The position numbers were made by a program, and so were the translations under genes. Of a stretch of DNA of 64,000 bases, positions 1-12,026 are shown piece by piece; positions within the stretch are counted from its first letter, which is position 1, and each line of letters begins with the position of its first letter. Origin of the DNA: Vicinamibacteria bacterium (GTDB lineage: Bacteria > Acidobacteriota > Vicinamibacteria > Fen-336); NCBI GenBank assembly GCA_025923995.1, contig JAICEW010000001.1:4513-68512 (forward strand), read 5' to 3'. The notes beneath the pieces were generated by a model. That model was not told the DNA's origin, did not search any database, and was given only the letters and a program-made list of their open reading frames with translations.

Positions 1-457
1 GACGCCCCTCGTTGTAGGCCGTGATCGCGGTGACGTGGGTCTCGCTGGCGACGGCCGCCTCGGCCAGCAGCTCGTAGTCGCCCGGCTCGGACGAGGGATT
101 GTCCGTCGACACCTTGAGGCGGTAGTCGCCTTCCTTCTGCGTGATCCAGACGAGCATCTCGCTGCCGCCGACCTGGACCCAGTCCTTCACCTCGATGAGC
201 GCGGTGCCGGCGGGATCGAGCAGCTCGAGCGTGAGGTCGATCCCGATCTGTGCGCCGGCCACCTTCAGGGCCTGCCCCGCCGCCAGCTCCAGCCGGTACT
301 CGTGGACCTCGTTCGCGGCGAGCCGGTGGCGGACCGGCACGGACGGAGCGAGCACGCCCTGGTCGACGGTGGAGCGCGGCGGCGGGCTCGGCGCGACGCT
401 CGGGCCCTGGGGCGCCAGGAGCCCGACCAGCGGGACGCACAGACCCAGTGCCCGCAT
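1..457 (-). CDS. 5' part (N-terminal 152 aa) of a secreted protein with a PPC-like beta-sandwich domain; the gene continues past the window start
   Basis: Reverse-complement of 1-457 is an uninterrupted reading frame from ATG (457-455): MRALGLCVPLVGLLAPQGPSVAPSPPPRS... (signal-peptide-like). It is followed by HEYRLELAAGQALKV...LLDPAGTALIEV...GDYRLKV...PGDYELL, which is alignable to the N-terminal domain of the CHAT protein at 8910-12026. GC3-rich codon usage. Not in the ORF track because it is truncated by the window edge. Confidence 0.5.
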   Translation of the reverse strand, partial: MRALGLCVPLVGLLAPQGPSVAPSPPPRSTVDQGVLAPSVPVRHRLAANEVHEYRLELAAGQALKVAGAQIGIDLTLELLDPAGTALIEVKDWVQVGGSEMLVWITQKEGDYRLKVSTDNPSSEPGDYELLAEAAVASETHVTAITAYNEGR

Positions 458-508
458 GACCGGCAAGGATGGAACACCCAATCCCCCGCGGGCGCAAGGG
501 CGCATGCG

Positions 509-2191
509 TCAGCGCGGTCGGTGCAGCATCGGCGAGTCGAAGCTGAAGCCGGTCGAGGGCTCGAGCGCCACCGTCTTGCCCGCCAGCGCGCCGTAGGGCG
601 CGTCGTGGACGGCCGTGATGGTCCCGCTGGCGCCCGCGAGGGCCGGGATCCCGGCCGTGGCCAGGACGAGCAGCCCCTTGGGCGGGAGTGGTGCGATCGG
701 CGAGTGCGTCGCCAGCAGGTCCCCGGCGGGCGACCAGAAGTACAGCGTGGCCGTCACGGGCTCCGCGGTCGGGTTCTGCAGCAGCACGACCGTCACCTGG
801 CTGCCCGCGTTGTTGAAGCGCGGGACGATCAGCGTCGTGTCCCACGCGCGCAGCCGGTAGGTGTCGTCCGCCCCGCTGGGCGGCGCGGCTCCCCGCGCGC
901 GCACGCGCACGAGCTGGTCCTCGATGGCGGTCGAGGTGGGATTGGCGAAGCGCAAGGCGCGCGCGGGACCCGTGCCCGCCGCCTGCGCGGACTGGAGGAC
1001 GGTCCCACCGGCGTCCACTCGCTCCAGCGCGGGACCCTCGCCCGTGCCCAGGTCGCCCGAGGCCGCGTCGACGACGACCTCGTACGAGGAGTGGGCGTCC
1101 TGCCGGATGCGGAAGTGGTCGCCGCCGCTCCCGGCGGCCGCGGGCAGCGCGCGCTCGACGCGCGTCCCGTGCGCGAGCTCGGCGAAGGCGGGCGGCGTCT
1201 GCACGGCGGTCACGGCCTGCGCCGCGTTGTTCGCGGCCACGGGATCCGTCGCGGCTCCGGCCACGGTCGCGTCGTTGACGATGGGTCCGGCGGCGGTGTC
1301 CTTGACGCGCACGTGCACCGTGACCACCGACGTCCCGCCGGGGTCGAGCGCGCCCAGCGCGCAGGTCAAGGCGTTGCTCGCGTACTGGCACGTGGGGGCC
1401 GCGGGGGAGGACGCCACGAAGTCCACCAGCAGCGGATCCGGTGTCGACACCAGCGTCATGCCGGGCGAGCGTGAGGGGCCGTCGTTCGTGACCGTGAGCG
1501 TGTATACGAGCGGCGCCCCCGGCGCGACCGGGTCGGGCGCATCGGCGATGGCGAGCGCCAGGTCGGCGCGCGGATCGAGCAGGTCGGAGTCGGTCGCCGA
1601 GTTGTTGCCCAGCGCGGGGTCGGTCACCCCCGACGGCGGCGTCAGGCCCGCGGTGTTCGCGAGGGTCCCCGTCGCCGCGGGATCGATGGTGCCCGTGAGC
1701 GCGAACGTGGCCGAGCCGCCGACCAGCAGGCTCACGGACGCGTTGATGAGCCCGGAGCCGGACGCCGGGCACGACGACCCGCCCGACGCCGTGCAGGTCC
1801 AGGTCACGCCGAGGAGCGCAGCGGGCGGCGTGTCCAGGACGGTCGCGGACGCGACGCTCGAGGGGCCGGCGTTCGAGGCCACGATCGTGTAGGTGAGGGC
1901 GGTGCCGGGCACCGCGGTCGCCTGGCCGTCCGTCTTCGTGAGCGACAGGTCGGCCTGCGGGCCGCCGCTGCCGGCCGCGAGCGACCAGAAGCCGGCGTGG
2001 AGGGCGAACGGGCTGCCGGCGAAGGGTCCTCCGGCGTCGGGCTGCCCGGCGGTGCCGTCGAGCGTGAACGTGCCGCCCGCGGCGCCCATGGCGCCGCCGC
2101 CATCCACCGTGGACCAGGAGATCGCGTAGGGCTGCGCCGAAGCGGCTGCGGCGGCCAGGCCGAAGACGATCGCCAGCGCGGCTTGCCTCAC
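509..2191 (-). CDS. secreted DUF11 (conserved repeat domain) protein with an uncharacterised C-terminal domain
   Basis: Real start re-anchored to GTG at 2191 (VRQAALAIVFGLAAAAASAQP signal peptide) with AGGAGG 6 nt upstream; the ORF-track N-terminal extension is Arg-rich junk. Contains two DUF11-like modules (LTKTDGQATAVPGTALTYTIVASNAGPS...; VYTLTVTNDGPSRSPG...). Lies 18 nt downstream of the preceding gene. Confidence 0.7.
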   Translation of the reverse strand: MRQAALAIVFGLAAAAASAQPYAISWSTVDGGGAMGAAGGTFTLDGTAGQPDAGGPFAGSPFALHAGFWSLAAGSGGPQADLSLTKTDGQATAVPGTALTYTIVASNAGPSSVASATVLDTPPAALLGVTWTCTASGGSSCPASGSGLINASVSLLVGGSATFALTGTIDPAATGTLANTAGLTPPSGVTDPALGNNSATDSDLLDPRADLALAIADAPDPVAPGAPLVYTLTVTNDGPSRSPGMTLVSTPDPLLVDFVASSPAAPTCQYASNALTCALGALDPGGTSVVTVHVRVKDTAAGPIVNDATVAGAATDPVAANNAAQAVTAVQTPPAFAELAHGTRVERALPAAAGSGGDHFRIRQDAHSSYEVVVDAASGDLGTGEGPALERVDAGGTVLQSAQAAGTGPARALRFANPTSTAIEDQLVRVRARGAAPPSGADDTYRLRAWDTTLIVPRFNNAGSQVTVVLLQNPTAEPVTATLYFWSPAGDLLATHSPIAPLPPKGLLVLATAGIPALAGASGTITAVHDAPYGALAGKTVALEPSTGFSFDSPMLHRPR

Positions 2192-2208
2192 CTCGCGCCT
2201 CCTGCGGG

Positions 2209-4131
2209 TCAGCGGCAGCTGTGGGTGCTGCACTTGGTCACCTTGAGCGTGCCCAGCGACGTCCCGTAGCTGATCACCGGCAGGCCGTCCGCGCCGAGCA
2301 CGACCGCCGAGTCGAAGCCCACGATGCCGCTTCCCGGCGCGAGGCTGTCCAGGCTCGTGAGGACGTTCCCCGCCGAGCAGGCCGCGTTGCCACACTTGGC
2401 GACGCGCAGCCCTTCGATGAACGAGCTGTAGAACGTCACGAGCGGGAGACCGTCCGCGCCGATCACGACCTGTCCCGTGGAGCCCAGGTCCGTGGCCAGC
2501 ACGGTGACGGTCGAGGTGCCCGTGCACGTGGCGTTCGCGCACTTCGCGGCCTTGAGGCTCAGGTCGGTGGCGAACTGCCCGAGGTAGCTCACGACGGGGA
2601 CGCCGTCGGCGCCGATCGCGATCGAGCTGTAGGCGCCGGCGAGCACACCCGCGCTCACCGGATCGTCGACCACCGTCAGCACGTTCCCCGCGCTGCACGC
2701 GGGCGTGCCGCAGTGCGCCACCTTGAGGACGCCCGCCGTCCGGTCGTGGTAGCTCACCACGGGCAGGCCGTCGGCCCCGACCGCGATGGCCGTGCCGTAG
2801 TCCACCGCGCCGATGGGATCATCCACGACCGTGATGGTGTTGGCGTTGCTGCAGGCGGCGTTCCCGCACTTCACCACCTTCAGCGTGCCCGCCGTCGTGT
2901 CGTTGTAGCTGACGACGGGCAGGCCGTCGGCGCCGATCGCGAGCGAGCTGCCCCGGCCCACCACGTTGACGGCGGGATCGTCCACGAAGGTGCGGGTGCT
3001 GACGCTGCAGAACGCGTTGGCGCACTTGGCGACCTTGAGCGCGCCCGCGCTCGCGTCGTGGTAGCTGATGACGGGGAGCCCGTCGGCGGGGACCGCGATC
3101 GACGTGTCGATGCCCACGACGGCCGCCGGGTCGTCCACCGTGACGGCGATGTTGCCCGCGCTGCAGGCCGGGTTGCCGCAGCGGAGGAACTTGAGCGCGC
3201 CGGCCGTCGCGTCGTGGTAGCTGACGACGGGCAGGCCGTCGGCGCCGATCGCGATCGAGGTGTCCTCGCCGACCTGGTTGACCGGATCGTCGGCGGTCGT
3301 GACCGCGGGCGGCACGAAGACGGCCTCGCAGACCACGGACCCGTCCGCGTTGATCCCGCGCAGGTACTGCCCGGCCGTGCACGCGCCGCTGACGCGCGCC
3401 TGCACCTGCGCGGTGTTGATCTGCGCGAGGCCGACGGCGCCGCCCGCGATCTTCGGCGACGTCACCGCCTGGGGCGCGATCAGGACCGTCGTGATTCCGG
3501 CGGCCGCGACCGCCAGCGTTCCCGTGCCCGTCACCGGTCCGCCGGTCAGCCCGGCGCCGGTGGCCACGGAGGTGACGGTGCCCCCGCTGTTGGCATCCGG
3601 TGCGCACGCCCACGCGGCGCCGTTCCACTTCGCGACCTGGCTGGGCGCGCAGGAGAGCGCGCCCAGCGCATCGTCGTCCGTGTCGTCGGCGAAGCCGGCC
3701 GGCTTGCCCGAGACGCCCGACCACGGCGCGGCTGCGCTCCACAGCGAGGCGGGCCCTGGCGTGAGCTCCTGCCGCGGCGCCAGGCTCGTGTAGCCGCCGG
3801 CGGACGCGCCCGGCCGGACGCCCACGTCCAGGAACCGCTGGCTGCCCGCGAACGCCGCCCCGAAGTCGAGCCTGACCGTGAACAGCCCGTTCGCGACCAC
3901 CACGTCGTCGCGCGCGACCGTCGGTCCGGACTGCGAGCCGCCGGCCACCGCGTCGAAGAGCCGGAACTGGAAGTCGAACGTGCCCTCGGCCGGCAGGCGG
4001 GCGTCCGTCAGCCGCCCCTGGTAGGTGAAGGCGGTGCCTTGCGGAGTCTGGGCCTGGACGGCGCCGGCGCCGGTGAGCACCGCGAGCGCGAACGCCGTCC
4101 GCGTGCGGCGGACTCGCGAGGGCATCGTCAT
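2209..4131 (-). CDS. secreted tail-fibre-like repeat protein, paralog A (shared N-terminal domain plus 8 x ~48-aa Cys-pair repeats)
   Basis: Start ATG at 4131 (MTMPSRVRRTRTAFALAVLTGAGAVQAQ signal peptide) overlapping the upstream stop as ATGA. The N-terminal ~230 aa are homologous to the N-terminus of the 4128-6233 product (FTYQGRL...FDFQF...GGSQ.GP...DDVVVA.GLFTV.LDFGA.FAGS...SGKPAGFADDTDDDALG...AKWNG..WACA). Then eight repeats of the form ...IAIGADGLPVVSY.D.TAG.LKV.KCGN.ACS...VVDDP. Confidence 0.7.
   Translation of the reverse strand: MTMPSRVRRTRTAFALAVLTGAGAVQAQTPQGTAFTYQGRLTDARLPAEGTFDFQFRLFDAVAGGSQSGPTVARDDVVVANGLFTVRLDFGAAFAGSQRFLDVGVRPGASAGGYTSLAPRQELTPGPASLWSAAAPWSGVSGKPAGFADDTDDDALGALSCAPSQVAKWNGAAWACAPDANSGGTVTSVATGAGLTGGPVTGTGTLAVAAAGITTVLIAPQAVTSPKIAGGAVGLAQINTAQVQARVSGACTAGQYLRGINADGSVVCEAVFVPPAVTTADDPVNQVGEDTSIAIGADGLPVVSYHDATAGALKFLRCGNPACSAGNIAVTVDDPAAVVGIDTSIAVPADGLPVISYHDASAGALKVAKCANAFCSVSTRTFVDDPAVNVVGRGSSLAIGADGLPVVSYNDTTAGTLKVVKCGNAACSNANTITVVDDPIGAVDYGTAIAVGADGLPVVSYHDRTAGVLKVAHCGTPACSAGNVLTVVDDPVSAGVLAGAYSSIAIGADGVPVVSYLGQFATDLSLKAAKCANATCTGTSTVTVLATDLGSTGQVVIGADGLPLVTFYSSFIEGLRVAKCGNAACSAGNVLTSLDSLAPGSGIVGFDSAVVLGADGLPVISYGTSLGTLKVTKCSTHSCR
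2212..3370 (-). repeat. in-frame tandem coding repeats (8 x ~144 nt) within the paralog A gene
   Basis: Periodic protein repeat GADGLPV(V/I)SY...LKV.KC(G/A)N..C seen eight times in the translation of 2209-4131; boundaries approximate. Confidence 0.5.
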
Positions 4132-6233
4132 GGCCGCGTGGCGGTGTGGCGCCGGTCGAGACCGCGCTCGGGCGGGGCGCCCCATGCGTCGGGGTGCAGG
4201 TAGGTCCCGCGCTCGTCGTCCGGCTTGTCTTCCTCGACCGGGATGCGGTGCTTCTCGGCGTACGCGTCCTGGCGTATCCCGGTCACCTGCCACGAGACCT
4301 CGATGCGCGGCAGGTCGGTCTGGACGACGAAGGTCCCGCCCGCCATCTTCCGCGAGACGCGTGCGCGCGCCCAGGCGCCGCCGCCGAGCACCGTGAGCTG
4401 GTAGCGGAAGTCGCGGTTCAAGGCCTCGAACCAGTCCGGCATCGTCACCGTCGCGTATCCCTGGTCGTCGGTGGTGACCACGCCGTCGTAGACGTTCTTC
4501 ATCTCCGGCGACTCGACGAACGAGTGGTACAGGTACCGGTTCTCGGGATCGAGCGGGTGGTCGATCTTGAACGAGCCCGCGCTCTTCGAGAGCGTCCCGT
4601 TCACGTGCAGGCGACCCGAGAAATAGCCGGCGTAGCCGGACGAGGAGCCCGAGAGCCCGTAGACGCCGACGTTGGCGCCGGTGGTTCCGGACGCCTGGCC
4701 GTAGACGCCGTACACCGTGCCCGTGCCGGTGGCCTCCCCGTGGACGCCGAAGCCGCGGACCACCTCGCCGTGCACGCCGGTCGCGACCCCGCCCGCCAGC
4801 GCCTGGCCCCGCACGCCGATGCCGACGCTGGACGTGCTGACGCCGTGCACGCCGACGATCGCGCCCGACGGCCAGTTCGCCTCGCCGTACACGCCGGTCG
4901 CTCCCACGGACTGGGCCCAGCCGTAGACGCCGAAGATGTCGCCGCTGCCTCCGAACGCGCGGCCCTGGACGCCGCGTCCGGCGCTGGACCAGCTCTCGCC
5001 CCACACGCCGGTCGTATTGCCCGAGGAGGCGAGCGCGTAGCCCACGACGCCGCGGCCTCCGGTCGACTCGGAGCGCCCCACCGCGCCGATCGTCGGCCCT
5101 CCGACGGTCGACGTCGCCCAGCCGTACACGCCCACGCCCTGGGTGGATTGCGACTGGCCCTCGACGCCGCGCGCGTCGCCGGAGCTCGCGAGCGCCACGC
5201 CCGACACGCCCCGCCCGAACGTCGACATGCTCCAGCCCTTCGCGCCGTACGTGAGCCCCGTGCTGGCCGTGTGCCAGCCGAACAGCGCGGAGCCGTAGCT
5301 GCTGCCGCTCTGTCCGCGCACGCCGAACTCGCCGCCCTCGGCGTAGACGCCGATGCCCTGGCTCGAGTCGCTCAGGCCGTAGACCCCGATGGTCGCGTTC
5401 GTGGTCGCGAGCGCGTGACCGTAGACGCCGACGCCGCTGGTCGAGCTGGTCTCGCCGACCACGCCGCGGCTGAAGCCACCGCCGGCTCCGGCGCGCGCCA
5501 GGAGGCCGGTGCCCGCGTTCGCCGTGCTCTCGACCGTGAGGCCGGTCGCGCTGCCCGCGTTCCAGGTCTGGCCGTGATGGTTGTGGTCGCTGCGCGCGAC
5601 CGTGGTCGACGCGCCGCCGCCGCCGAACGCGACGCTCAGCGTTCCCGTCGAGGTGATCGGCCCGCCCGCGAGGCCCGCCCCCGCCGCGACCGAGGTGACG
5701 GTGCCCGGGTTCACGCTGTCCACCGCGCACGCCCAGCCGTTGCCGTTCCACTTCGCGACCTCGCCGGCCGCGCAGGTGAGGCCGCCCAGCGCGTCGTCGT
5801 CCGTGTCGTCCGCGAAGCCGGCCGGCTTGCCCGAGACGCCGGTCCAGGGCGCGGCCGCGCTGAAGAGCGCGGTCGGGGTCGAGGTCAGCTCCTGGCGGGG
5901 CACGATCGGGGTGTAGGTGCCGGCGCTCGCGCCGGGCCGCACCGAGACGTCGAGCCAGCGCCGGCTCCCGGCGAAGGACGCGCCGAAGTCGAGCGCGACG
6001 GTGAAGAGCCCACCGGCCACCACCACGTCGTCGCGCAGCACGATGGGGCCGACCTGCGAGCCTCCCACCGCGGCGTCGTAGAGGATGAACTGGAAGTCGA
6101 ACGCGCCGTCGGCCGGCGCCCCACCGTCGGCCAGCCGGCCCTGGTAGGTGAAGCTCGAGCCCTGGGGAGTCTGGGCGGCGGCCGCCCCCCCCAGCAGGGC
6201 GGAGACGGCGGCCCCGACGATCGCGTAGCGCAT
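4128..6233 (-). CDS. secreted tail-fibre-like protein, paralog B (shared N-terminal domain, Gly-rich ~11-aa periodic repeats, conserved C-terminal IDHPLDPEN-type domain)
   Basis: Start ATG at 6233 (MRYAIVGAAVSALLGGAAAAQTPQG signal peptide) with AAGGAG upstream. The stop TGA (4130-4128) overlaps the next gene's ATG (4131-4129) as ATGA. The central region is a periodic G.GV(Y/W/H)G.(A/S)xxS repeat. The C-terminus reads SAGSFKIDHPLDPENRYLYHSFVESPEMKNVYDGVV... Confidence 0.7.
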   Translation of the reverse strand: MRYAIVGAAVSALLGGAAAAQTPQGSSFTYQGRLADGGAPADGAFDFQFILYDAAVGGSQVGPIVLRDDVVVAGGLFTVALDFGASFAGSRRWLDVSVRPGASAGTYTPIVPRQELTSTPTALFSAAAPWTGVSGKPAGFADDTDDDALGGLTCAAGEVAKWNGNGWACAVDSVNPGTVTSVAAGAGLAGGPITSTGTLSVAFGGGGASTTVARSDHNHHGQTWNAGSATGLTVESTANAGTGLLARAGAGGGFSRGVVGETSSTSGVGVYGHALATTNATIGVYGLSDSSQGIGVYAEGGEFGVRGQSGSSYGSALFGWHTASTGLTYGAKGWSMSTFGRGVSGVALASSGDARGVEGQSQSTQGVGVYGWATSTVGGPTIGAVGRSESTGGRGVVGYALASSGNTTGVWGESWSSAGRGVQGRAFGGSGDIFGVYGWAQSVGATGVYGEANWPSGAIVGVHGVSTSSVGIGVRGQALAGGVATGVHGEVVRGFGVHGEATGTGTVYGVYGQASGTTGANVGVYGLSGSSSGYAGYFSGRLHVNGTLSKSAGSFKIDHPLDPENRYLYHSFVESPEMKNVYDGVVTTDDQGYATVTMPDWFEALNRDFRYQLTVLGGGAWARARVSRKMAGGTFVVQTDLPRIEVSWQVTGIRQDAYAEKHRIPVEEDKPDDERGTYLHPDAWGAPPERGLDRRHTATRP
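4670..5620 (-). repeat. degenerate ~33-36 nt tandem coding repeats (Gly-rich beta-helix-like) within the paralog B gene
   Basis: DNA periodicity of gtagacgccg / gtgcacgccg / gtacacgccg units; the protein shows GVYG / GVHG / GVWG periodicity. Boundaries approximate. Confidence 0.45.
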
Positions 6234-6312
6234 GGCCACTCCTTGTGGGGTCCGTGCAAGGGTGACGCCGCGGCCGGAAACGTGTCGGGTGGGCGCCCGG
6301 GAAAACGCATCG

Positions 6313-6347
6313 GGGCCGGAGCGCGCTGGGGCGACGCGCTCCGGCCC
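6313..6347 (-). terminator. strong GC hairpin (13-bp perfect stem, 9-nt loop) between the Cys-rich gene and paralog B; possible terminator or attenuator
   Basis: gggccggagcgcg (6313-6325) and cgcgctccggccc (6335-6347) are exact reverse complements. On the minus-strand RNA it begins 7 nt after the TGA of 6355-7008 and is followed by CGAUGCGUUUUCC (a short U run 7 nt downstream). Confidence 0.3.
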
Positions 6348-6354
6348 GAACCCC

Positions 6355-7008
6355 TCACATCCAGGGGATGAACGGGTCCTCGTACGGCGGCTCCGGCAGC
6401 CCGACACACTCGCAGGTGAACGGGCACACGTAGCGCCAGCACTGCCCCCCTGAGTCCCACCACCAGTGACAGCTGCAGCTGAAGCCGGCCACGCCGCCCT
6501 GTGGCGCCAGGGGGTTGTTGCACCAGAGCTCACAGTAGTGCTCGATGCCCTCGCAGCTCTGGCTCGATCCCTGGCACCGCTGCCCATAGCTCACGGTGGC
6601 GCCGGTGGCCGGCGTCAGCTTGAACCGGTGGTGGGGGTCGACCGGCCCGACCGCCTTGCTGTCGAGGATCACCCGGGCGGTCTGCGTCTTGCCCGGATCG
6701 ATGTCGTACCCCTGTGCGACCTTCACGCGACGCACCAGCGTGCCGTCGGGCTTCGAGATGTCGAGCGACCAGCCGCCGGCCGTCACGAGCAGGTTGCTCG
6801 TGGTGTTGTGGACGCCGATCTGGAACCCGATCGAGTACTTGCCGCCCGCCTCGGGAATGAGGCGGGCGTCCCCGACCGTCAGCTTGAACGGCGCCTCGGG
6901 CGACGAGACGGCCTGGATCGTGATGGGGATCGGCTCCGCGGCCATCAGGATGGCGGCCACGGCAAGGGTCAGCGCGGCGGCGGCGGCAACGGCCGTTCGC
7001 GGGCGCAT
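6355..7008 (-). CDS. secreted Cys/Trp-rich protein (beta-sandwich N-terminal part plus a C-terminal ~70-aa domain with 12 Cys)
   Basis: Start ATG 7008-7006 (MRPRTAVAAAAALTLAVAAILMAAEP signal peptide) sharing one nt with the TGA of the metzincin gene (TGATG). The C-terminus reads RCQGSSQSCEGIEHYCELWCNNP...FSCSCHWWWDSGGQCWRYVCPFTCEC. Confidence 0.65.
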   Translation of the reverse strand: MRPRTAVAAAAALTLAVAAILMAAEPIPITIQAVSSPEAPFKLTVGDARLIPEAGGKYSIGFQIGVHNTTSNLLVTAGGWSLDISKPDGTLVRRVKVAQGYDIDPGKTQTARVILDSKAVGPVDPHHRFKLTPATGATVSYGQRCQGSSQSCEGIEHYCELWCNNPLAPQGGVAGFSCSCHWWWDSGGQCWRYVCPFTCECVGLPEPPYEDPFIPWM

Positions 7009-7961
7009 CAGAAGCACCCGTTCGTGTAGGTGGCCGTCCGGTTGCCGCGGCGGTAGCAGCTGCAGCCCGACGCGTTGCACGCGCGCACCCGCACGTACGC
7101 GGAGGCCACGACGTTCAGCGTGGTCATGGTGTCGGGCCCGGAATACACGAGCGTCTGTGTTCCGAAGCCGGAGCTGCTCGACCGGTACACCTCGTACCGC
7201 GTGGCGCCGGCCGAGGGAGCCCAATCGAGGTCGTTCAGCCCGTAACACATCGCCGGAGTCACGGTGAAGCTGGCGGGCGCGGGCGGAGCGCCCGTCGCGC
7301 CGCAGTACCGCTCCTGGGAGCACTTCAGGGCGTTGCGGTCGTCCGTCTCCAGGCTCCGCTGCTGCGTCCCGCCCCAGTACGTCGCGTCCATGGTGGGCGT
7401 CTGGTTGGTTGCGGCGGGCACCGAGAGCTCGGTGTGGTGGATGCCCAGCGCGTGGCCCAGCTCGTGGGCCGCGACCGCCTGCGTGTCGTTGTCCATTCCG
7501 TTCGTGAACCAGTTGACGTTGTCCTCGAACACGATGTCGGACTCGATGATGACCTGCCCCGGCTGCTGCAGGACGAGCTGGGTGAGAGCGATGCAGCCGT
7601 TGCACGGGATCGCCTGGGCCCAGGAGAGGGTGTTCTGCTGGTCCACGGTGAACCCCGCGTTGGTGGTGCCCGCGTACGTGAGCACGTGGTCGGCGCCGGG
7701 GACGTTCGTCCAGGACGTCATGGCCGCCGTGAGTGCTGCCGCCTTGCCGTTCCCCTGGCGGGCCAGGTTGTGGAACCAGTTGGTGAACGGCGTGTTCCAG
7801 TGGGTGAAGCCGCCCGGGTCGTTGCAGGGCACGCGAAGGCCGCTGGTCTGCGCGCCGGCATTCGTCTGCTGGATCAGGCGCGAGGCGTCCGATGGAACCG
7901 CGATGCCCGACAGCAGGATCGCGGCCGTGGCGAGTCTCGTGAGACGACGTGGGCGGGTCAT
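7008..7961 (-). CDS. secreted zinc metalloprotease of the metzincin class (HExxHxxGxxH) with a C-terminal Cys-containing FN3-like tail
   Basis: AAHELGHALGIHH motif plus a downstream Met-turn candidate (PTMDATY). Signal peptide MTRPRRLTRLATAAILLSG. Start ATG 7961-7959 with GAGGAGG upstream, overlapping the upstream gene's stop as ATGA. Confidence 0.8.
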   Translation of the reverse strand: MTRPRRLTRLATAAILLSGIAVPSDASRLIQQTNAGAQTSGLRVPCNDPGGFTHWNTPFTNWFHNLARQGNGKAAALTAAMTSWTNVPGADHVLTYAGTTNAGFTVDQQNTLSWAQAIPCNGCIALTQLVLQQPGQVIIESDIVFEDNVNWFTNGMDNDTQAVAAHELGHALGIHHTELSVPAATNQTPTMDATYWGGTQQRSLETDDRNALKCSQERYCGATGAPPAPASFTVTPAMCYGLNDLDWAPSAGATRYEVYRSSSSGFGTQTLVYSGPDTMTTLNVVASAYVRVRACNASGCSCYRRGNRTATYTNGCF

Positions 7962-8554
7962 CGCTGCACCTCCTCGGCGGGCCCCTGCCTCACGGCATCG
8001 AGGATCCGCTGCGTGAGCTCGTGAAGCGGGAGGCCGTCGGGGCCACCCGCGGGATCCCTGCGGCCGAACCGATCGGCCACGAGCGGATGGGACGCCGCCT
8101 GGCTCACGGCGTGCGTGACGCCGTCCGTGCCCTCGGCCAGGTCGAACACGCCCTGCGACAGGTAGCTGGGGGTGAGTGCGTCGGCCGCTCCCGGGAGCGT
8201 CCCGCGGCCGAGGAACAGCACGTAGCTGCGGCCTGTTTGAAGCGAGGCTCCGGCGACGATCATCGCCGTGCGGTCCCCGACCGTTCCTCCCAGCAGCGTG
8301 ACGGTGATCTCCGCCCCGGCGCTTCCCTTCAGCACCTCGGTCGGGGCGACCCGCACGTCGGTGAAGATCAGGCTCCGCGCCGCGTTCCAGTACGAGCGCG
8401 CTCCCATGACCTCGCCGACCACGACCGTCTCGTGGGCTGCGGTCAGGTCCTCCAGGCTGGCGCGAACCATCGTGGTCGCGTCCGCGGATGCCACACAGCC
8501 GAGCGCGAGCGCGATCGCGCCGGTGGCATGCCTCCATGTCTTGTTCGTGTGCAT
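7958..8554 (-). CDS. secreted hypothetical protein (198 aa); first gene of the coupled triad
   Basis: Start chosen at ATG 8554 (MHTNKTWRHATGAIALALGCVASADA signal peptide) preceded by GAGGAGGTGGACCAC. The ORF-track start at 8644 adds 30 non-hydrophobic residues. Confidence 0.6.
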   Translation of the reverse strand: MHTNKTWRHATGAIALALGCVASADATTMVRASLEDLTAAHETVVVGEVMGARSYWNAARSLIFTDVRVAPTEVLKGSAGAEITVTLLGGTVGDRTAMIVAGASLQTGRSYVLFLGRGTLPGAADALTPSYLSQGVFDLAEGTDGVTHAVSQAASHPLVADRFGRRDPAGGPDGLPLHELTQRILDAVRQGPAEEVQR

Positions 8555-8909
8555 GTGGTCCACCTCCTCGGCGAGACGGACGCGGGGTGAGGGCCGGCTC
8601 TCTCGGCACGAGGCGGGGGACGTGATGCGCCTCACCGCACGCACGTGTCACGCGTGCCTGGTGATCGCGGGATGACGAAGCTTCCGCGAAGCCGCCTGCG
8701 GGGGGACTGGGGGAGGAGGCTCGGCGGCTGGCGGGCCGGCGGAAGAGGGAGGCCGCCGCCCGCACCGGCCAGCCGACTCTTCCGCGGATCGGCTGCCCCG
8801 GCGCCACCCGGGCGGCGACGGTTCCCTACCCCTATGTGACGCGCGAAACCCATCCGTTACGTCTCAGGGGGGAAGCCTGGTCGTCCTAGAATGTCGGTGC
8901 CCTGGTCCC

Positions 8910-11900
8910 ATGCGCGGTCGAGCCCATTCGCCGGCTTGGACCCCTTTCCGGACGGTCCTGCTGTGCCTGGCGGCCTCGCCGTTCGTGGTCGCGCTCGAGG
9001 AGACGGTCGTCCCGAACGGCGTTCCCCTGCCCTTCGAGCTGACGGGCGGCGAGCCCAACCGCCACCCGTTGGCGCTCGAAGCGGGCCAGCTCCTGGACGT
9101 GGAGCTGCGCGAGAGATCGTCGCGGCTCGGCCTCGCCCTCCTCGATCCCTCGGGCGCCGTCGCCGCGCGACGTGAGGTGGCCGGAGAGAGCATCACGACG
9201 GTGCGCCTGCTCGCCGTGGCTCCGGTCGCGGGGCTCTACACGCTCGAGGTCCGGGCCCAGTCACCGGGCGCGCCGGGAGGCTACACGCTTGGCATCCAGC
9301 CGCCCCGTGCGGCCGGCACCGCCGAGCGGACGCGCGTCTCCGGCGACGAGGTGCATGCCGAAGCCCTCCGGGAGGCGGCCAAGGGCACGCCGGACGGCCG
9401 ACGCGGGGCGCTCGAGCGGCTGGCCGTCGCCGAGAAGGCGTTCGGCGAGACCGGCGACCGTCTCGGCCTCGCCCTCGTGCTCCAGGATCGCGGGACCGTG
9501 CAGCTCGCGCTCGGAGACCTCGCCGCCGGCCCGTCGTCGTATGAACGCGCGCTCGATCTGTTCCGCCGGATGGACCACGCCGAGGGCGAGGCGGCGGCGC
9601 TGTGCGGGCTGGGGCGCGCGAAGCTGGCCCAAGGTGAGCTGGAGCTGGCGGGACAGTTGTTCGATCGGGCGCTCGAACGTGCCGGCGCGGCCAATCCACG
9701 CACCGTCGCCTACTACACCAGCAACGCCGGGATCGTGCTGGCGCGCACTGGACGCTACGAAGGCGCGATCGCGCGTTTCTCCCGCGCGGCCGAGCTGGTG
9801 GCCCCGACGGGGGACGGGCGCGGCCAGGGCCGCGCGCTCACCAACCTGGCGAGCGCCCACAAGGAGCTGGGCGACTACGAGCGCGCGGCCGCCATCTACG
9901 ATCGCGCGCTCGCGGTGTGGGAGAAGGCCGGACAGCGCGACGGCATGCTGATGACGCTCGTCAACCTCGGCAACATGGCCCTGCTGCAGGACGACGTGGA
10001 GCGCGCACAGGCGCTGCTGGAGAAGGCCCTGCCGCTGGCGGAGGGCACGGGGACCGACGAGGAAGGCCGTCTCCTCATGAACCTGGCGGCGATCCATCGG
10101 CGGCGCGGGGACCTGCCGCGGGCCGTCCCTCTGGCCGAGCGGTCGCTCGAAATCAGGCGGCGCGCGGCCCAGCCGCGTGGCATCGCCAGTTCGCTGCAGA
10201 TCCTCGCGGACTGCGTACGCGACGCCGGCGACCCGGAGCTGGCCCTGCGCCACCTCACGGAGGCGCTGGCGCTGCAGCAGTCCATCCAGGACGCGTACCT
10301 GGGCTCGGAGACGCTCAGCCGCATGGCCGAGCTGGAGCGCTCCGGTGGCCGCCTGAAGGAGGCCGTGCAGCACGCCGAGCAGGCGGTGAGCCTTGTCGAG
10401 TCGCTGCGGGCTTCCGTGACGAACCCGGACCTGCGCGCTTCGTTCGTCGCGGTCGAGCGGGTCAAGTACGACCTGCTGGTCGACGTGCTGATGCGCCTGC
10501 ACGAGCAGGACCCGGCGGCGGGGCACGACGCGGCCGCCCTGGCCGTCAGCGAGCGCGCCAGCGCGCGCGTCCTTCTCGACTCGCTGGTGGAGGCGCGCGC
10601 CGACATCCGCGCCGGCGTGGACGCCGCGCTGCTGGCCCGCGAGCGGGAGCTCCAGAAGCGGATGACCGAGGGCTCCACGCGCCTGTCGTCGCTGCTCGCC
10701 CGGCAGGCCCCGGCCGGAGACGTGGAGCCCGCTCGCGCCGCACTCGAAGCCGCGTCCGAGGAGTACCGCCAGCTCCAGGCCACGATCAGGGCGCAGAGCC
10801 CCCGCTATGCCGCGCTCACCCAGCCCCAGCCCCCCACGCTGGAGCAGCTGCGGCAGGACGCGCTGGACGAAGGGACGCTCCTGCTGGAGTACTTCCTGGG
10901 CGACGACCGCAGTGTCCTCTGGGTCGTGGGCCGGAAGGAGCTCGTGAGCGTCTCGCTGCCCGCCCGCCGGAGGATCGAGGAGCCCGCCCGGCGCATCCAC
11001 GAGCTCCTGAGCGAGCGGCAGCGCTCGCGTGGTGCCGCCGCGCGCGCGGCCGACGAGCGCCTCCGCGCGGAGTCGGCGGCGCTGTCGGAGGTGCTGCTCG
11101 GGGGCATCGCGCCGCGGCTGCGGGCCGACTGGCGCGGCAAGCGCCTCCTGATCGTGGCGCCGGGCGCGCTGGCGTACGTTCCCTTCGCCGCGCTCCCGCT
11201 GCCCGGCGACGCCGGCGGCCGCCCCCTGTTGGACGGCCACGAGGTGGTCTACGCGCCGTCGGCCTCCGTGCTGATCGCCTTGCGCCGCGAGCCGCCCCCG
11301 GTCACGGAACGGTCGACGGTCGCCGTGCTGGCCGACCCGGTCTTCGAGGCGGACGACCCCCGCGTCGGCCGCTCGGGGGGGCACGCCTCGCGGGCGCCGC
11401 AACCGGTCGGGCTGGGCCGCGCGATGCGGAGCCTGGGGCGCGACCACTTCACGCGCCTGCCCTTCTCCCGCGCGGAGGCGGCGGCGCTCGCGTCGCTGGT
11501 GCCCGAGCGTGACCTGCTGCGCGCGACCGACTTCGCGGCGTCGCGCGCGCTCGTCGACGAGGGCGCGCTGGCGGGGCGACGCATCGTGCACTTCGCGACC
11601 CACGGCATCCTCGACACCGCGCACCCCGACCTGTCCGGCCTCGTGCTGTCGCTCGTGGACGAGAAGGGCCGGCCGCGCGACGGCTTCCTGCGCATGCACG
11701 AGATCTACAACCTGCGCCTGCCCGCGGACCTGGTGGTGCTGAGCGCGTGCCAGACCGCGCTCGGCCGCGAGGTGCGCGGCGAGGGGCTGGTCGGCCTCAC
11801 GCGCGGCTTCCTCTACGCCGGCGCGCGCCGCGTGATGGCCAGCCTCTGGCAGGTCGACGACGAGTCGAGCGCGGAGCTGATGAGGCGCTTCTATCGCGCC

Positions 11901-12026
11901 CACCTGCGCGACGGGCAGCCGCCGGCGGCCGCGCTGCGCGCCGCGCAGGCGGAGATGTCCCGCGACCGCCGGTTCGCCGCGCCGTTCTACTGGGCGGCGT
12001 TCACCCTCACCGGCGACTGGCGCTGA
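8910..12026 (+). CDS. multidomain CHAT (caspase-like) protease: N-terminal PPC-like domain, TPR repeats, coiled linker, C-terminal CHAT domain
   Basis: TPR-like segments (LGLALVLQDRG..., ALTNLASAHKELGDYERAAAIYDRAL..., LMNLAAIHRRRGDL...). The CHAT domain carries the His/Cys dyad (IVHFATHGILD ... LVVLSACQTALG). The N-terminus (FRTVLLCLAASPFVVALEE) may be a signal peptide. Start codon uncertain; the only in-frame ATG is at 8910. Confidence 0.85.
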   Translation: MRGRAHSPAWTPFRTVLLCLAASPFVVALEETVVPNGVPLPFELTGGEPNRHPLALEAGQLLDVELRERSSRLGLALLDPSGAVAARREVAGESITTVRLLAVAPVAGLYTLEVRAQSPGAPGGYTLGIQPPRAAGTAERTRVSGDEVHAEALREAAKGTPDGRRGALERLAVAEKAFGETGDRLGLALVLQDRGTVQLALGDLAAGPSSYERALDLFRRMDHAEGEAAALCGLGRAKLAQGELELAGQLFDRALERAGAANPRTVAYYTSNAGIVLARTGRYEGAIARFSRAAELVAPTGDGRGQGRALTNLASAHKELGDYERAAAIYDRALAVWEKAGQRDGMLMTLVNLGNMALLQDDVERAQALLEKALPLAEGTGTDEEGRLLMNLAAIHRRRGDLPRAVPLAERSLEIRRRAAQPRGIASSLQILADCVRDAGDPELALRHLTEALALQQSIQDAYLGSETLSRMAELERSGGRLKEAVQHAEQAVSLVESLRASVTNPDLRASFVAVERVKYDLLVDVLMRLHEQDPAAGHDAAALAVSERASARVLLDSLVEARADIRAGVDAALLARERELQKRMTEGSTRLSSLLARQAPAGDVEPARAALEAASEEYRQLQATIRAQSPRYAALTQPQPPTLEQLRQDALDEGTLLLEYFLGDDRSVLWVVGRKELVSVSLPARRRIEEPARRIHELLSERQRSRGAAARAADERLRAESAALSEVLLGGIAPRLRADWRGKRLLIVAPGALAYVPFAALPLPGDAGGRPLLDGHEVVYAPSASVLIALRREPPPVTERSTVAVLADPVFEADDPRVGRSGGHASRAPQPVGLGRAMRSLGRDHFTRLPFSRAEAAALASLVPERDLLRATDFAASRALVDEGALAGRRIVHFATHGILDTAHPDLSGLVLSLVDEKGRPRDGFLRMHEIYNLRLPADLVVLSACQTALGREVRGEGLVGLTRGFLYAGARRVMASLWQVDDESSAELMRRFYRAHLRDGQPPAAALRAAQAEMSRDRRFAAPFYWAAFTLTGDWR

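Follow-up and report, generated by a model that had tools for sequence, protein, structure and literature searches.

Genes and signals at the locus

We analyzed a 64,000-nucleotide stretch of the genome of a Vicinamibacteria bacterium (GenBank assembly GCA_025923995.1, contig JAICEW010000001.1, positions 4,513 to 68,512 of the forward strand), hereafter the window, and concentrated on three adjacent minus-strand genes that we call A, B, and C. Gene B codes for a predicted secreted metzincin of peptidase family M10, and gene A, which precedes it, codes for a secreted protein whose predicted fold is that of the NTR/TIMP modules. A and B are a widely conserved bacterial pair and the real unit of the locus. 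The interest of the locus rests on this pair and not on the cysteine-rich product of gene C, whose ten-cysteine domain is a separate small curiosity. In what follows, loci of other genomes are given by L numbers and individual proteins by P numbers. The genes and their ribosome-binding signals are as follows:

8563-8567, minus strand: Shine-Dalgarno sequence GGAGG of gene A, 8 nt before the ATG, read from the sequence
7958-8554, minus strand: gene A (start at 8554), 198 amino acids, from the open reading frame and its translation
7969-7973, minus strand: Shine-Dalgarno sequence GGAGG of gene B, within the 3′ end of A and 7 nt before the start of B
7008-7961, minus strand: gene B (start at 7961), 317 amino acids, secreted M10 (matrixin-like) metzincin
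6355-7008, minus strand: gene C (start at 7008), 217 amino acids, secreted, from a very rare family

Reading the sequence at the two junctions, we found that the stop codon of A and the start codon of B share an ATGA (7961-7958), and that the stop codon of B and the start codon of C share a TGATG (7010-7006). Gene C is preceded merely by a weak GGGTG and has no Shine-Dalgarno site of its own. The gene layout, the two overlaps, and the strong Shine-Dalgarno motifs before the first two genes are thus as a preliminary description of this stretch had given them. Three secreted products had also been proposed there, and by inspection and alignment we were able to recognize a signal-peptide-like N-terminus in each of A, B, and C. 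The GC content at third codon positions is 0.88, 0.93, and 0.93 for A, B, and C, respectively, in a window with 72.5% GC; this pattern, together with the homologues found for all three, indicates that they are real genes. The named homologues come from metagenome-assembled genomes (MAGs) of Thermoanaerobaculia and Holophagales, which makes the Acidobacteriota the probable source of the window.

Gene B encodes a predicted metzincin without a latency propeptide

B scores 33.3 bits (E 5.5e-8) with PF00413 (Peptidase_M10), whose cutoff is 24, the match spanning the C-terminal half of the model only. More than 419 homologues were found, several of them titled 'matrixin family metalloprotease [Thermoanaerobaculia]', and one protein (P0056) is 100% identical to B in sequence. 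The landmarks of the enzyme are located at these positions:

7434-7466, minus strand: zinc-binding motif HELGHALGIHH, residues 166-176 of B, which fits HExxHxxGxxH
7389-7391, minus strand: Met-turn methionine Met191 of B, within TPTMDATY
7011-7298, minus strand: C-terminal beta-rich, Fn3-like domain of B, residues ~222-317, with conserved Cys (RACNASGCS...GCF)

In an alignment of B with 30 homologues (alignment A3), H166, E167, G169, H170, G173, and H176 are invariant, as is M191. The zinc-binding motif, the Met-turn, and the PF00413 score above cutoff bear out the metzincin assignment made in the preliminary description, which had also remarked on the lack of an obvious long propeptide. Consistent with that remark, the aligned homologues consist of a signal peptide, followed nearly directly by a conserved mature N-terminus ([F/Y]RMIQNT...), and then the catalytic domain, with the mature N-terminus of B only ~25 residues ahead of the latter. 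Neither a propeptide of the matrix metalloproteinase (MMP) type nor its PRCGxPD cysteine switch was found in B in this alignment. Four cysteines (46, 120, 123, and 214) are invariant, Cys46 sitting in VPCNDPGG, and in the simplest reading they would form two structural disulfides. The catalytic domain of ~190 amino acids is followed by a cysteine-containing C-terminal domain of ~95 amino acids, which is present in proteins of the 315-amino-acid type and absent from the paralogues of the 215-amino-acid type. The C-terminal region gave weak Pfam and PHROGs matches to Ig/Fn3-like regions, and its fold is probably Fn3-like. Taken on its sequence features, B is predicted to be a Sec-exported M10 (matrixin-like) zinc endopeptidase that has no latency propeptide. 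A weak NCBIfam match of B was to a myxosortase-dependent metalloprotease family.

A and B are paired across bacterial phyla

We found 51 homologues of A. In L001, L006, L007/8, L009, L010/11, and L012, an A-family gene of 180-200 amino acids lies directly upstream of a B homologue on the same strand, the junction between the two ranging from −4 to +11 nt in these six relatives (L001, L006, L007, L009, L010, and L012). The genes flanking A-B are unrelated between the close-relative contexts. To look further afield, we scanned with the B alignment, taking one genome per species, and obtained 80 loci from many phyla, of which all stop-to-stop open reading frames (ORFs; 4955 in total) were searched with profiles of A, B, and C. 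A lies upstream of B in 20 out of 20 close relatives (L013-L032). An A-like domain adjoins an M10-like ORF in 56 of the 80 loci with the narrow A profile and in 59 with a broad profile built from 66 sequences, while no A-like match among the 4955 ORFs was located more than 300 nt from an M10 ORF. The A-like family is linked to M10-like proteases in Acidobacteriota, Chloroflexota, Verrucomicrobiota, Planctomycetota, Gemmatimonadota, Myxococcota, Bacillota, and others.

Moreover, the A-like domain and the M10 domain are fused in a single ORF in 10-11 loci, from Anaerolineae, Chloroflexia, Phycisphaerales, Acidobacteriota, Heliomicrobium, and an actinomycete, with the A-like domain at the N-terminus and a long low-complexity linker between the two. 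Gene fusions are classical (Rosetta-stone) evidence of direct functional interaction, and these therefore point to a direct functional link between A-like domains and M10 proteases.

The individual fusions were recorded in L033, L034, L054 (two genes), L062, L063, L064, L067, L068, L078, and L081, their hosts belonging to the Chloroflexota, Planctomycetota, Acidobacteriota, Bacillota, and Actinomycetes. The order in these proteins is signal peptide, A-like domain, linker, M10 catalytic domain, and varied C-terminal modules (dockerin, FG-GAP, Ig-like). A reversed order, with the M10 domain first, occurs in a Myxococcaceae MAG (L069 2503-3906), where the M10 part ends in a MYXO-CTERM-like Cys-Gly/transmembrane/Arg tail; no stop codon intervenes, and the reading frame runs on into a second stretch resembling a signal peptide and an A-like domain. 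Tandem arrangements were found in L018 (208-4066: A-B, A-B, and a further B) and L029 (2370-4863: A-B, A-B), which indicates local duplication of the pair as a unit. In a MAG of Akkermansia muciniphila (L035 1979-4188), an A-like gene (E 1e-15) is located directly upstream of an M10 protease (PF00413, E 1e-10); as this species is culturable and medically studied, it would lend itself to tests of the A-B pair.

The predicted fold of A is that of NTR/TIMP modules

A belongs to no Pfam, NCBIfam, or PHROG family, and no Pfam match was obtained even at E values up to 1. The N-terminal domains of the A-M10 fusion proteins are likewise without any such family. We obtained an AlphaFold2 model of A using 41 homologues, with a predicted local distance difference test score (pLDDT) of 88.3, above 95 in the core, and a predicted template modeling score of 0.80. 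In this model, mature A has an NTR/TIMP-like OB-fold domain, to which a helical extension is attached on the C-terminal side. The core of the domain is placed as follows:

8150-8476, minus strand: NTR/TIMP-like OB-barrel core of A, residues ~27-135, from the model and conservation

When the model was searched with Foldseek, the top 22 matches were all NTR/TIMP modules, those ranked first being NtA, TIMP-1, TIMP-2, PCOLCE, and C3, with probabilities of ~1.0. The predicted fold matched N-TIMP-3, TIMP-1, TIMP-2, agrin NtA, the PCOLCE NTR module, and C345C ahead of other OB folds.

The signal peptide of A comprises residues 1-26, with predicted cleavage at ADA↓TT (the arrow marking the predicted site), and in the close A family the residues around this point are conserved to 87% (A24), 97% (A26), 82% (T27), 89% (T28), and 100% (R31), position 29 being L or M. 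A conserved mature N-terminus, TT[M/L]xR, thus comes directly after an A-x-A site. Secreted proteins do not usually have an N-terminus whose first mature residues are so conserved. In 66 A-like domains from all phyla, stand-alone as well as fused, the domain starts 1-4 residues past the predicted signal-peptidase site, and its first residues are small or beta-branched (e.g., A↓IMV, A↓TVVK, G↓STVV, and A↓TSVV). Across the same 66 domains, the glycines of a GG-x-V loop (G89, G90, and V92 in A) are 100% invariant, and K76-G77, W56, and F114-L115 are more than 80% conserved. From the order of secondary structure elements in the model, the GG-x-V loop would correspond to the C-D connector of TIMPs. 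In TIMPs this connector adjoins the N-terminus in the inhibitory ridge. The C-terminal extension beyond the NTR core is also conserved in A (RAVSQA, G164/G170/G174).

We thus describe what the models indicate to be a new, widespread, and so far unannotated family of disulfide-free NTR/TIMP-like domains that is linked with bacterial M10 proteases, both as an operon partner and as part of a fusion. The family includes a subfamily of longer proteins (P0053-P0055 and L083 1484-2416) of 277-311 amino acids, with an extra conserved C-terminal domain of ~80 residues (...IQIPHGLN.PVSIA.TESRGTGRMHVYG...). At least one of these genes, that in L083, lies upstream of an M10 gene.

A as a candidate latency factor or inhibitor of B

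Judging from the model and the genomic context, A is probably, though by no means certainly, a latency factor or an inhibitor of B. We favor this reading because B has no propeptide, because A would be made first from the same mRNA and both proteins would be exported, and because the predicted fold, the N-terminal placement of the domain, and the N-terminal fusions all fit it. The suggestion in the preliminary description that A might be a chaperone or a propeptide acting in trans is supported in spirit: A is the obligate upstream partner of a propeptide-less B in all relatives examined, A-like domains are found fused to the N-terminal side of the protease, and the predicted fold is of the TIMP/NTR type.

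In the mechanism we propose, A would be made first from the shared mRNA and its translation would be coupled to that of B through the ATGA overlap. After export via Sec, A would fold into a predicted disulfide-free OB barrel of the NTR/TIMP type, bind B 1:1 in the periplasm, and block or shield the active site. It would in this way be a latency factor or inhibitor, possibly a folding chaperone too, supplied in trans, while in the fusion form of other phyla the A-like domain would be a prodomain tethered through the long linker. The likeliest binding surface would be a TIMP-like wedge consisting of the N-terminal T27-T28-M-V-R, which signal peptidase would free at the A-x-A site, and the neighboring GG-x-V loop. 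TIMPs inhibit by setting residue 1, with its free alpha-amino group, on the catalytic zinc, residues 2-4 filling the primed subsites (PMC9890683). That A inhibits B by an N-terminal zinc-wedge mechanism is a tentative proposal, possible on the strength of the model yet rather doubtful. We consider it unlikely that the A-like domain is a true prokaryotic homologue of the NTR/TIMP module and the ancestral latency device of bacterial M10 proteases, inhibiting them via its free N-terminal alpha-amino group in trans or in cis (a 'TIMP prodomain').

A number of observations weigh against an inhibitory A. The signal-peptidase sites were assigned via the A-x-A rule and alignment, and they are predicted. 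No cysteine is conserved in A among 41 homologues, and Cys1, Cys3, and the three N-domain disulfides of TIMPs are missing. Using N-domain sequences of TIMP-1, -2, and -3 that had been checked against the PDB, hhalign gave a probability of 0.2% for the close A family and 0.8% for the 66-sequence profile; the best local alignment paired helix 1, strand A, and strand B as the structures would lead one to expect, and was not significant. A hidden Markov model (HMM) of TIMPs reached a best E value of 0.016, likewise not significant, against the 66 A-like sequences, and a profile search of the PDB with A returned noise only and no sequence relative. As the PDB profile search, hhalign, and the HMM were all non-significant, we rejected a homology by sequence of A to solved structures or to TIMPs. 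Without significant sequence similarity and without a conserved cysteine, A is TIMP/NTR-like in its predicted fold and not a demonstrable member of the TIMP family. Furthermore, NTR modules outside the TIMPs, such as agrin NtA and PCOLCE, serve in binding or as enhancers and are not inhibitors, so the fold alone is no proof of inhibition. Finally, in the one bacterial precedent that has been studied, that from Listeria, the metzincin has its TIMP-like partner as a substrate, and the latter is not a demonstrated inhibitor (PMC8235301). As a separate observation, the best match of the TIMP HMM (E 0.016, non-significant) was a distant A-like protein, L045 2368-2883, which has SDLVIRAK at the helix-1/strand-A position; this is the octapeptide of TIMP-1 at the structurally equivalent position, and its identity is either a curiosity or a faint signal of homology.

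TIMPs and the NTR module are generally regarded as animal proteins. A shares with animal TIMPs (MEROPS I35, PF00965) and the NTR module the predicted fold (Foldseek probability ~1.0), a domain that begins at a predicted free mature N-terminus, and an M10/MMP-like protease as partner. It differs from them in having no significant sequence similarity, no cysteines, disulfides, or Cys1, and no TIMP C-terminal domain, in being bacterial and operon-encoded or fused to the protease, and in that its inhibition is predicted. In mammals, TIMPs are described as the sole endogenous protein inhibitors of MMPs (PMC9890683).

Co-transcribed protease/inhibitor pairs are already known in bacteria. The potempins of Tannerella forsythia are encoded upstream of, and co-transcribed with, the KLIKK peptidases, which include the M10 enzyme karilysin, and the periplasmic serralysin inhibitors are a further example (PMC9890683). 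Like PotA-karilysin and AprI/Inh, the A-B locus has a small gene adjoining that of the protease, adjacent and co-oriented, with an ATGA overlap in the window and the short junctions described above in six relatives. Not only is PotA encoded upstream of an M10 protease, but it is also an OB-type barrel, and potempins and serralysin inhibitors have the role of protecting the envelope of their own producer (PMC9890683). The differences are that potempins are outer-membrane lipoproteins of 98-132 residues, whereas A has no conserved lipobox cysteine, that PotA works by a 'bilobal' mechanism and not by an N-terminal wedge, and that karilysin keeps a short propeptide. Neither PotA nor the serralysin inhibitors are among the top structural matches of A. 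We also considered A as a potempin-like lipoprotein and rejected it, because Cys20 of its lipobox-like LALGC is not conserved among homologues.

Two other roles for A have to be weighed. A could be a non-inhibitory accessory of B, that is, a chaperone for folding or secretion, or an adaptor that binds a substrate or surface and targets B to it, like agrin NtA, which binds laminin, or the NTR module of PCOLCE, which is an enhancer. Agrin NtA and PCOLCE score equal to or above the TIMPs in the structural matches, and the TIMP cysteines are absent from A, as such a role would allow. Nevertheless, we regard it as quite unlikely. The strict placement right after the signal peptide, which stand-alone and fused forms all share, is what would be expected for a TIMP-like or prodomain role, while a targeting domain would need neither this placement nor conserved first mature residues. 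In addition, targeting domains are usually C-terminal in bacterial secreted proteases, and an accessory A would leave B without any other means of latency.

The other possibility is suggested by Listeria monocytogenes, whose Mtz-Tim pair, a secreted metzincin encoded beside a predicted TIMP-like protein as in our locus, is conserved across many Gram-positive bacteria (PMC8235301). A could be a substrate or pro-factor of B, cleaved to free an active NTR-like fragment with a target elsewhere, for instance the cell envelope or a competitor. In favor of this, Mtz cleaves its TIMP-like protein and the phenotype requires both (PMC8235301), and the conserved C-terminal extension of A (RAVSQA, G164/G170/G174) could hold a processing site. 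The two systems differ in several respects, though, here compared through the published description of Tim. The order in Listeria is metzincin and then Tim, opposite to that of the window, where A comes first; Tim is a lipobox lipoprotein cleaved by Mtz, whereas A has a type-I signal peptide and its Cys20 is not conserved; and the Listeria locus is under a CI/Cro-like switch of phage origin, whereas the window has neither XRE neighbors nor a link to phages. A prodomain or inhibitor is more in keeping with the N-terminal fusions to the protease than an independent effector would be, and B has no other latency device. We therefore judge it very unlikely that A is a substrate or pro-factor of B and not its inhibitor. 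The resemblance of Tim to TIMPs is itself a Phyre2 prediction with ~60% confidence, and its authors found in 2021 no other record of bacterial TIMP-like proteins (PMC8235301). In the literature, this was the one bacterial metzincin/TIMP-like pair we found, and we found nothing on the A family; a 2025 study of the horizontal transfer of MMPs makes no mention of TIMP-like partners (PMC12587646).

If A is indeed a latency factor or inhibitor, it would explain the latency of propeptide-less bacterial matrixins, it would provide a disulfide-free and easily expressed TIMP-like scaffold that could be engineered into MMP inhibitors, and the origin of the MMP/TIMP system would become testable. Should the homology of A-like domains and TIMPs also hold, the MMP-TIMP partnership would predate animals, or would have moved along with MMP genes, and would not be a metazoan invention.

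Gene C is a lineage-specific passenger of the operon

C belongs to no Pfam, NCBIfam, or PHROG family. We found four homologues among 5.8 billion proteins, and an exhaustive HMM search yielded a family of 18 representatives among 1.84 billion proteins. The family layout is a signal peptide, a domain of ~110 residues, a ten-cysteine domain of ~57 residues with an NNPL motif, and a Pro/aromatic tail. In C these parts are located as follows:

6598-6936, minus strand: Ig-like beta-sandwich of C, residues ~25-137, AlphaFold2 pLDDT ~90
6406-6576, minus strand: Cys-rich domain of C, residues 145-201, with 10 Cys and the NNPL motif, from alignment A4
6358-6405, minus strand: Pro/aromatic tail of C, GLPEPPYEDPFIPWM, directly after the Cys-rich domain

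The model of C (pLDDT 78) has a low-confidence linker at residues 138-141 between its two domains, and in the Cys domain it predicts a helix (155-163) and four strands with pLDDT 65-82. The beta-sandwich followed by a Cys-rich domain, as well as the six Trp, had been anticipated in the preliminary description; the count of cysteines is 10 and not the 12 given there. Their spacing in the window is C-6-C-6-C-3-C-14-C-1-C-9-C-4-C-3-C-1-C, with 14-C-1/2-C across the family, and 12 of the 15 scanned members have 10 Cys at near-identical spacing. In P0186 and P0189, the first cysteines were cut off by the 95-residue scan window and are present in alignment A4. P0190, a distant member, lacks both C159 and C199, and this joint loss suggests a C159-C199 disulfide. 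No structural match was obtained for the Cys domain, and the profile matches of C to the giant proteins P0185, P0187, and P0191 were discarded as sums of weak matches to MBG, PKD, and cadherin Ig-like repeats, which are uninformative.

The Cys domain of C resembles the cysteine-stabilized alpha-beta (cis-)defensins and the knottins in being small, secreted, and disulfide-rich, and in that C159xxxC163 is predicted in the helix and C199xC201 in the last strand (197-201). It differs from them in having 10 Cys, in being acidic (net charge −7) and Trp-rich, and in being joined to an Ig-like domain of ~110 residues. A knottin has three knotted disulfides in ~30 residues, and the domain here has 10 Cys in ~57 residues; a knottin-like topology, as named in the preliminary description, is possible. 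The published defensin pattern is C-X(2,18)-C-X3-C-X(2,12)-C-X(4,17)-C-X-C (PMC11561630). In its strict form it failed in 15 of 15 members, whose loops are of 14 and ≥18 residues, and only a relaxed pattern matched. Since the pattern does not hold and the net charge is acidic, we did not file the domain as a defensin. The rigid spacing of its cysteines suggests a new cystine framework.

In the window, L001-L003 (89% identity), and L098 (68%), B is followed by C, and the two share the TGATG overlap in each case. Homologues with 65%, 61%, 37%, 34%, and 30% identity (L004/5, L099, P0176, L093/94, and L095-97) are not behind a protease and are mostly flanked by divergent or convergent genes. The C profile had zero matches in L006-L092, and none of the other A-B loci has C behind B; we therefore rejected it as a conserved third partner. 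The preliminary description had proposed a triad, which fails as a conserved unit when co-conservation is checked, as C follows B only in the window, L001-L003, and L098; its idea of C as the cognate inhibitor is likewise not supported, C being absent after B elsewhere and most members standing alone. C is a lineage-specific passenger of the A-B operon, an accessory secreted protein. It would be translated by re-initiation at the B stop codon, and the coupling of the two genes suggests that they are co-expressed and that B may possibly process C; a role of C as substrate of B or as pro-toxin is possible.

That A, B, and C work as a single system, in which B has in C its cognate inhibitor, pro-toxin, or dedicated substrate, would agree with the TGATG coupling without a Shine-Dalgarno site of its own in the window, L001-L003, and L098, with the linker at 138-141 as a conceivable processing site, and with L099, where a C homologue lies ~4.5 kb from a distant A-like gene, but it is highly improbable, because the profile is silent in L006-L092 and C is not downstream of B in other A-B loci, its members stand alone in L004/5, P0176, L093/94, L095-97, and L099, its family is tiny (18 representatives) whereas A-B is widespread, and it is A that, as the conserved partner, suits the part of an inhibitor.

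The downstream hairpin and the neighboring genes

Between C and the next gene, D, the following feature was found:

6313-6347, minus strand: GC-rich hairpin with a stem of 13-14 bp

The 13-bp hairpin of the preliminary description is therefore present, and its stem is kept in L001. Its folding energy is −38.6 kcal/mol (z −1.5), marginally better than shuffled sequence. It has no T-run and the terminator scan made no call at this position, so we rejected it as a canonical intrinsic terminator; it may be a transcript end or a stabilizer.

On the other side of the locus, divergently adjacent to gene A, there is a gene for a TPR-CHAT protein of 1038 amino acids (8910-12026, plus strand). In L099, a distant A-like gene (3-413, minus strand) is divergent from a CHAT gene (512-3964, plus strand), which is followed by an extracytoplasmic function (ECF)-sigma-like gene (3968-4741, plus strand) and the C homologue (4950-5576, plus strand). 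The CHAT proteins of the window and L099 are 30% identical, and no CHAT domain was found in the flanks of L001-L098. We rejected CHAT-TPR as a part of the module on this basis, and its recurrence near A-like genes may be chance.

Downstream of the hairpin, the 'fibre' genes D (4128-6233, minus strand, 701 amino acids) and E (2209-4005, minus strand, ~598 amino acids) are paralogues, neither with a significant Pfam family. A phage or mobile origin, which such genes could suggest, was rejected: A had no tblastn match in 50,697 phage records, and there were no meaningful PHROG matches. D and E share an N-terminal domain of ~170 amino acids after the signal peptide (AQTPQGxxFTYQGRLxD...GKPAGFADDTDDD). 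We also asked if C is always paired with a D-type gene, which is true in the window, L002, and L004 and not in L093-L097 or L099, L098 being too short. Beyond the shared domain, D has many GVYG-type repeats and a conserved C-terminal domain, and E has about eight tandem repeats of 48 amino acids (DDP..VG..TSIA.GADGLPV.SY.D...G.LKV.KC.N..C). Next to them, F (509-2150, minus strand, ~546 amino acids) is secreted, has no Pfam match, and contains repeated domains of the 'LTKTDGQ...TYTIVASNAGPS' type. From 500 to 8554, the minus strand thus codes for six secreted proteins in a row.

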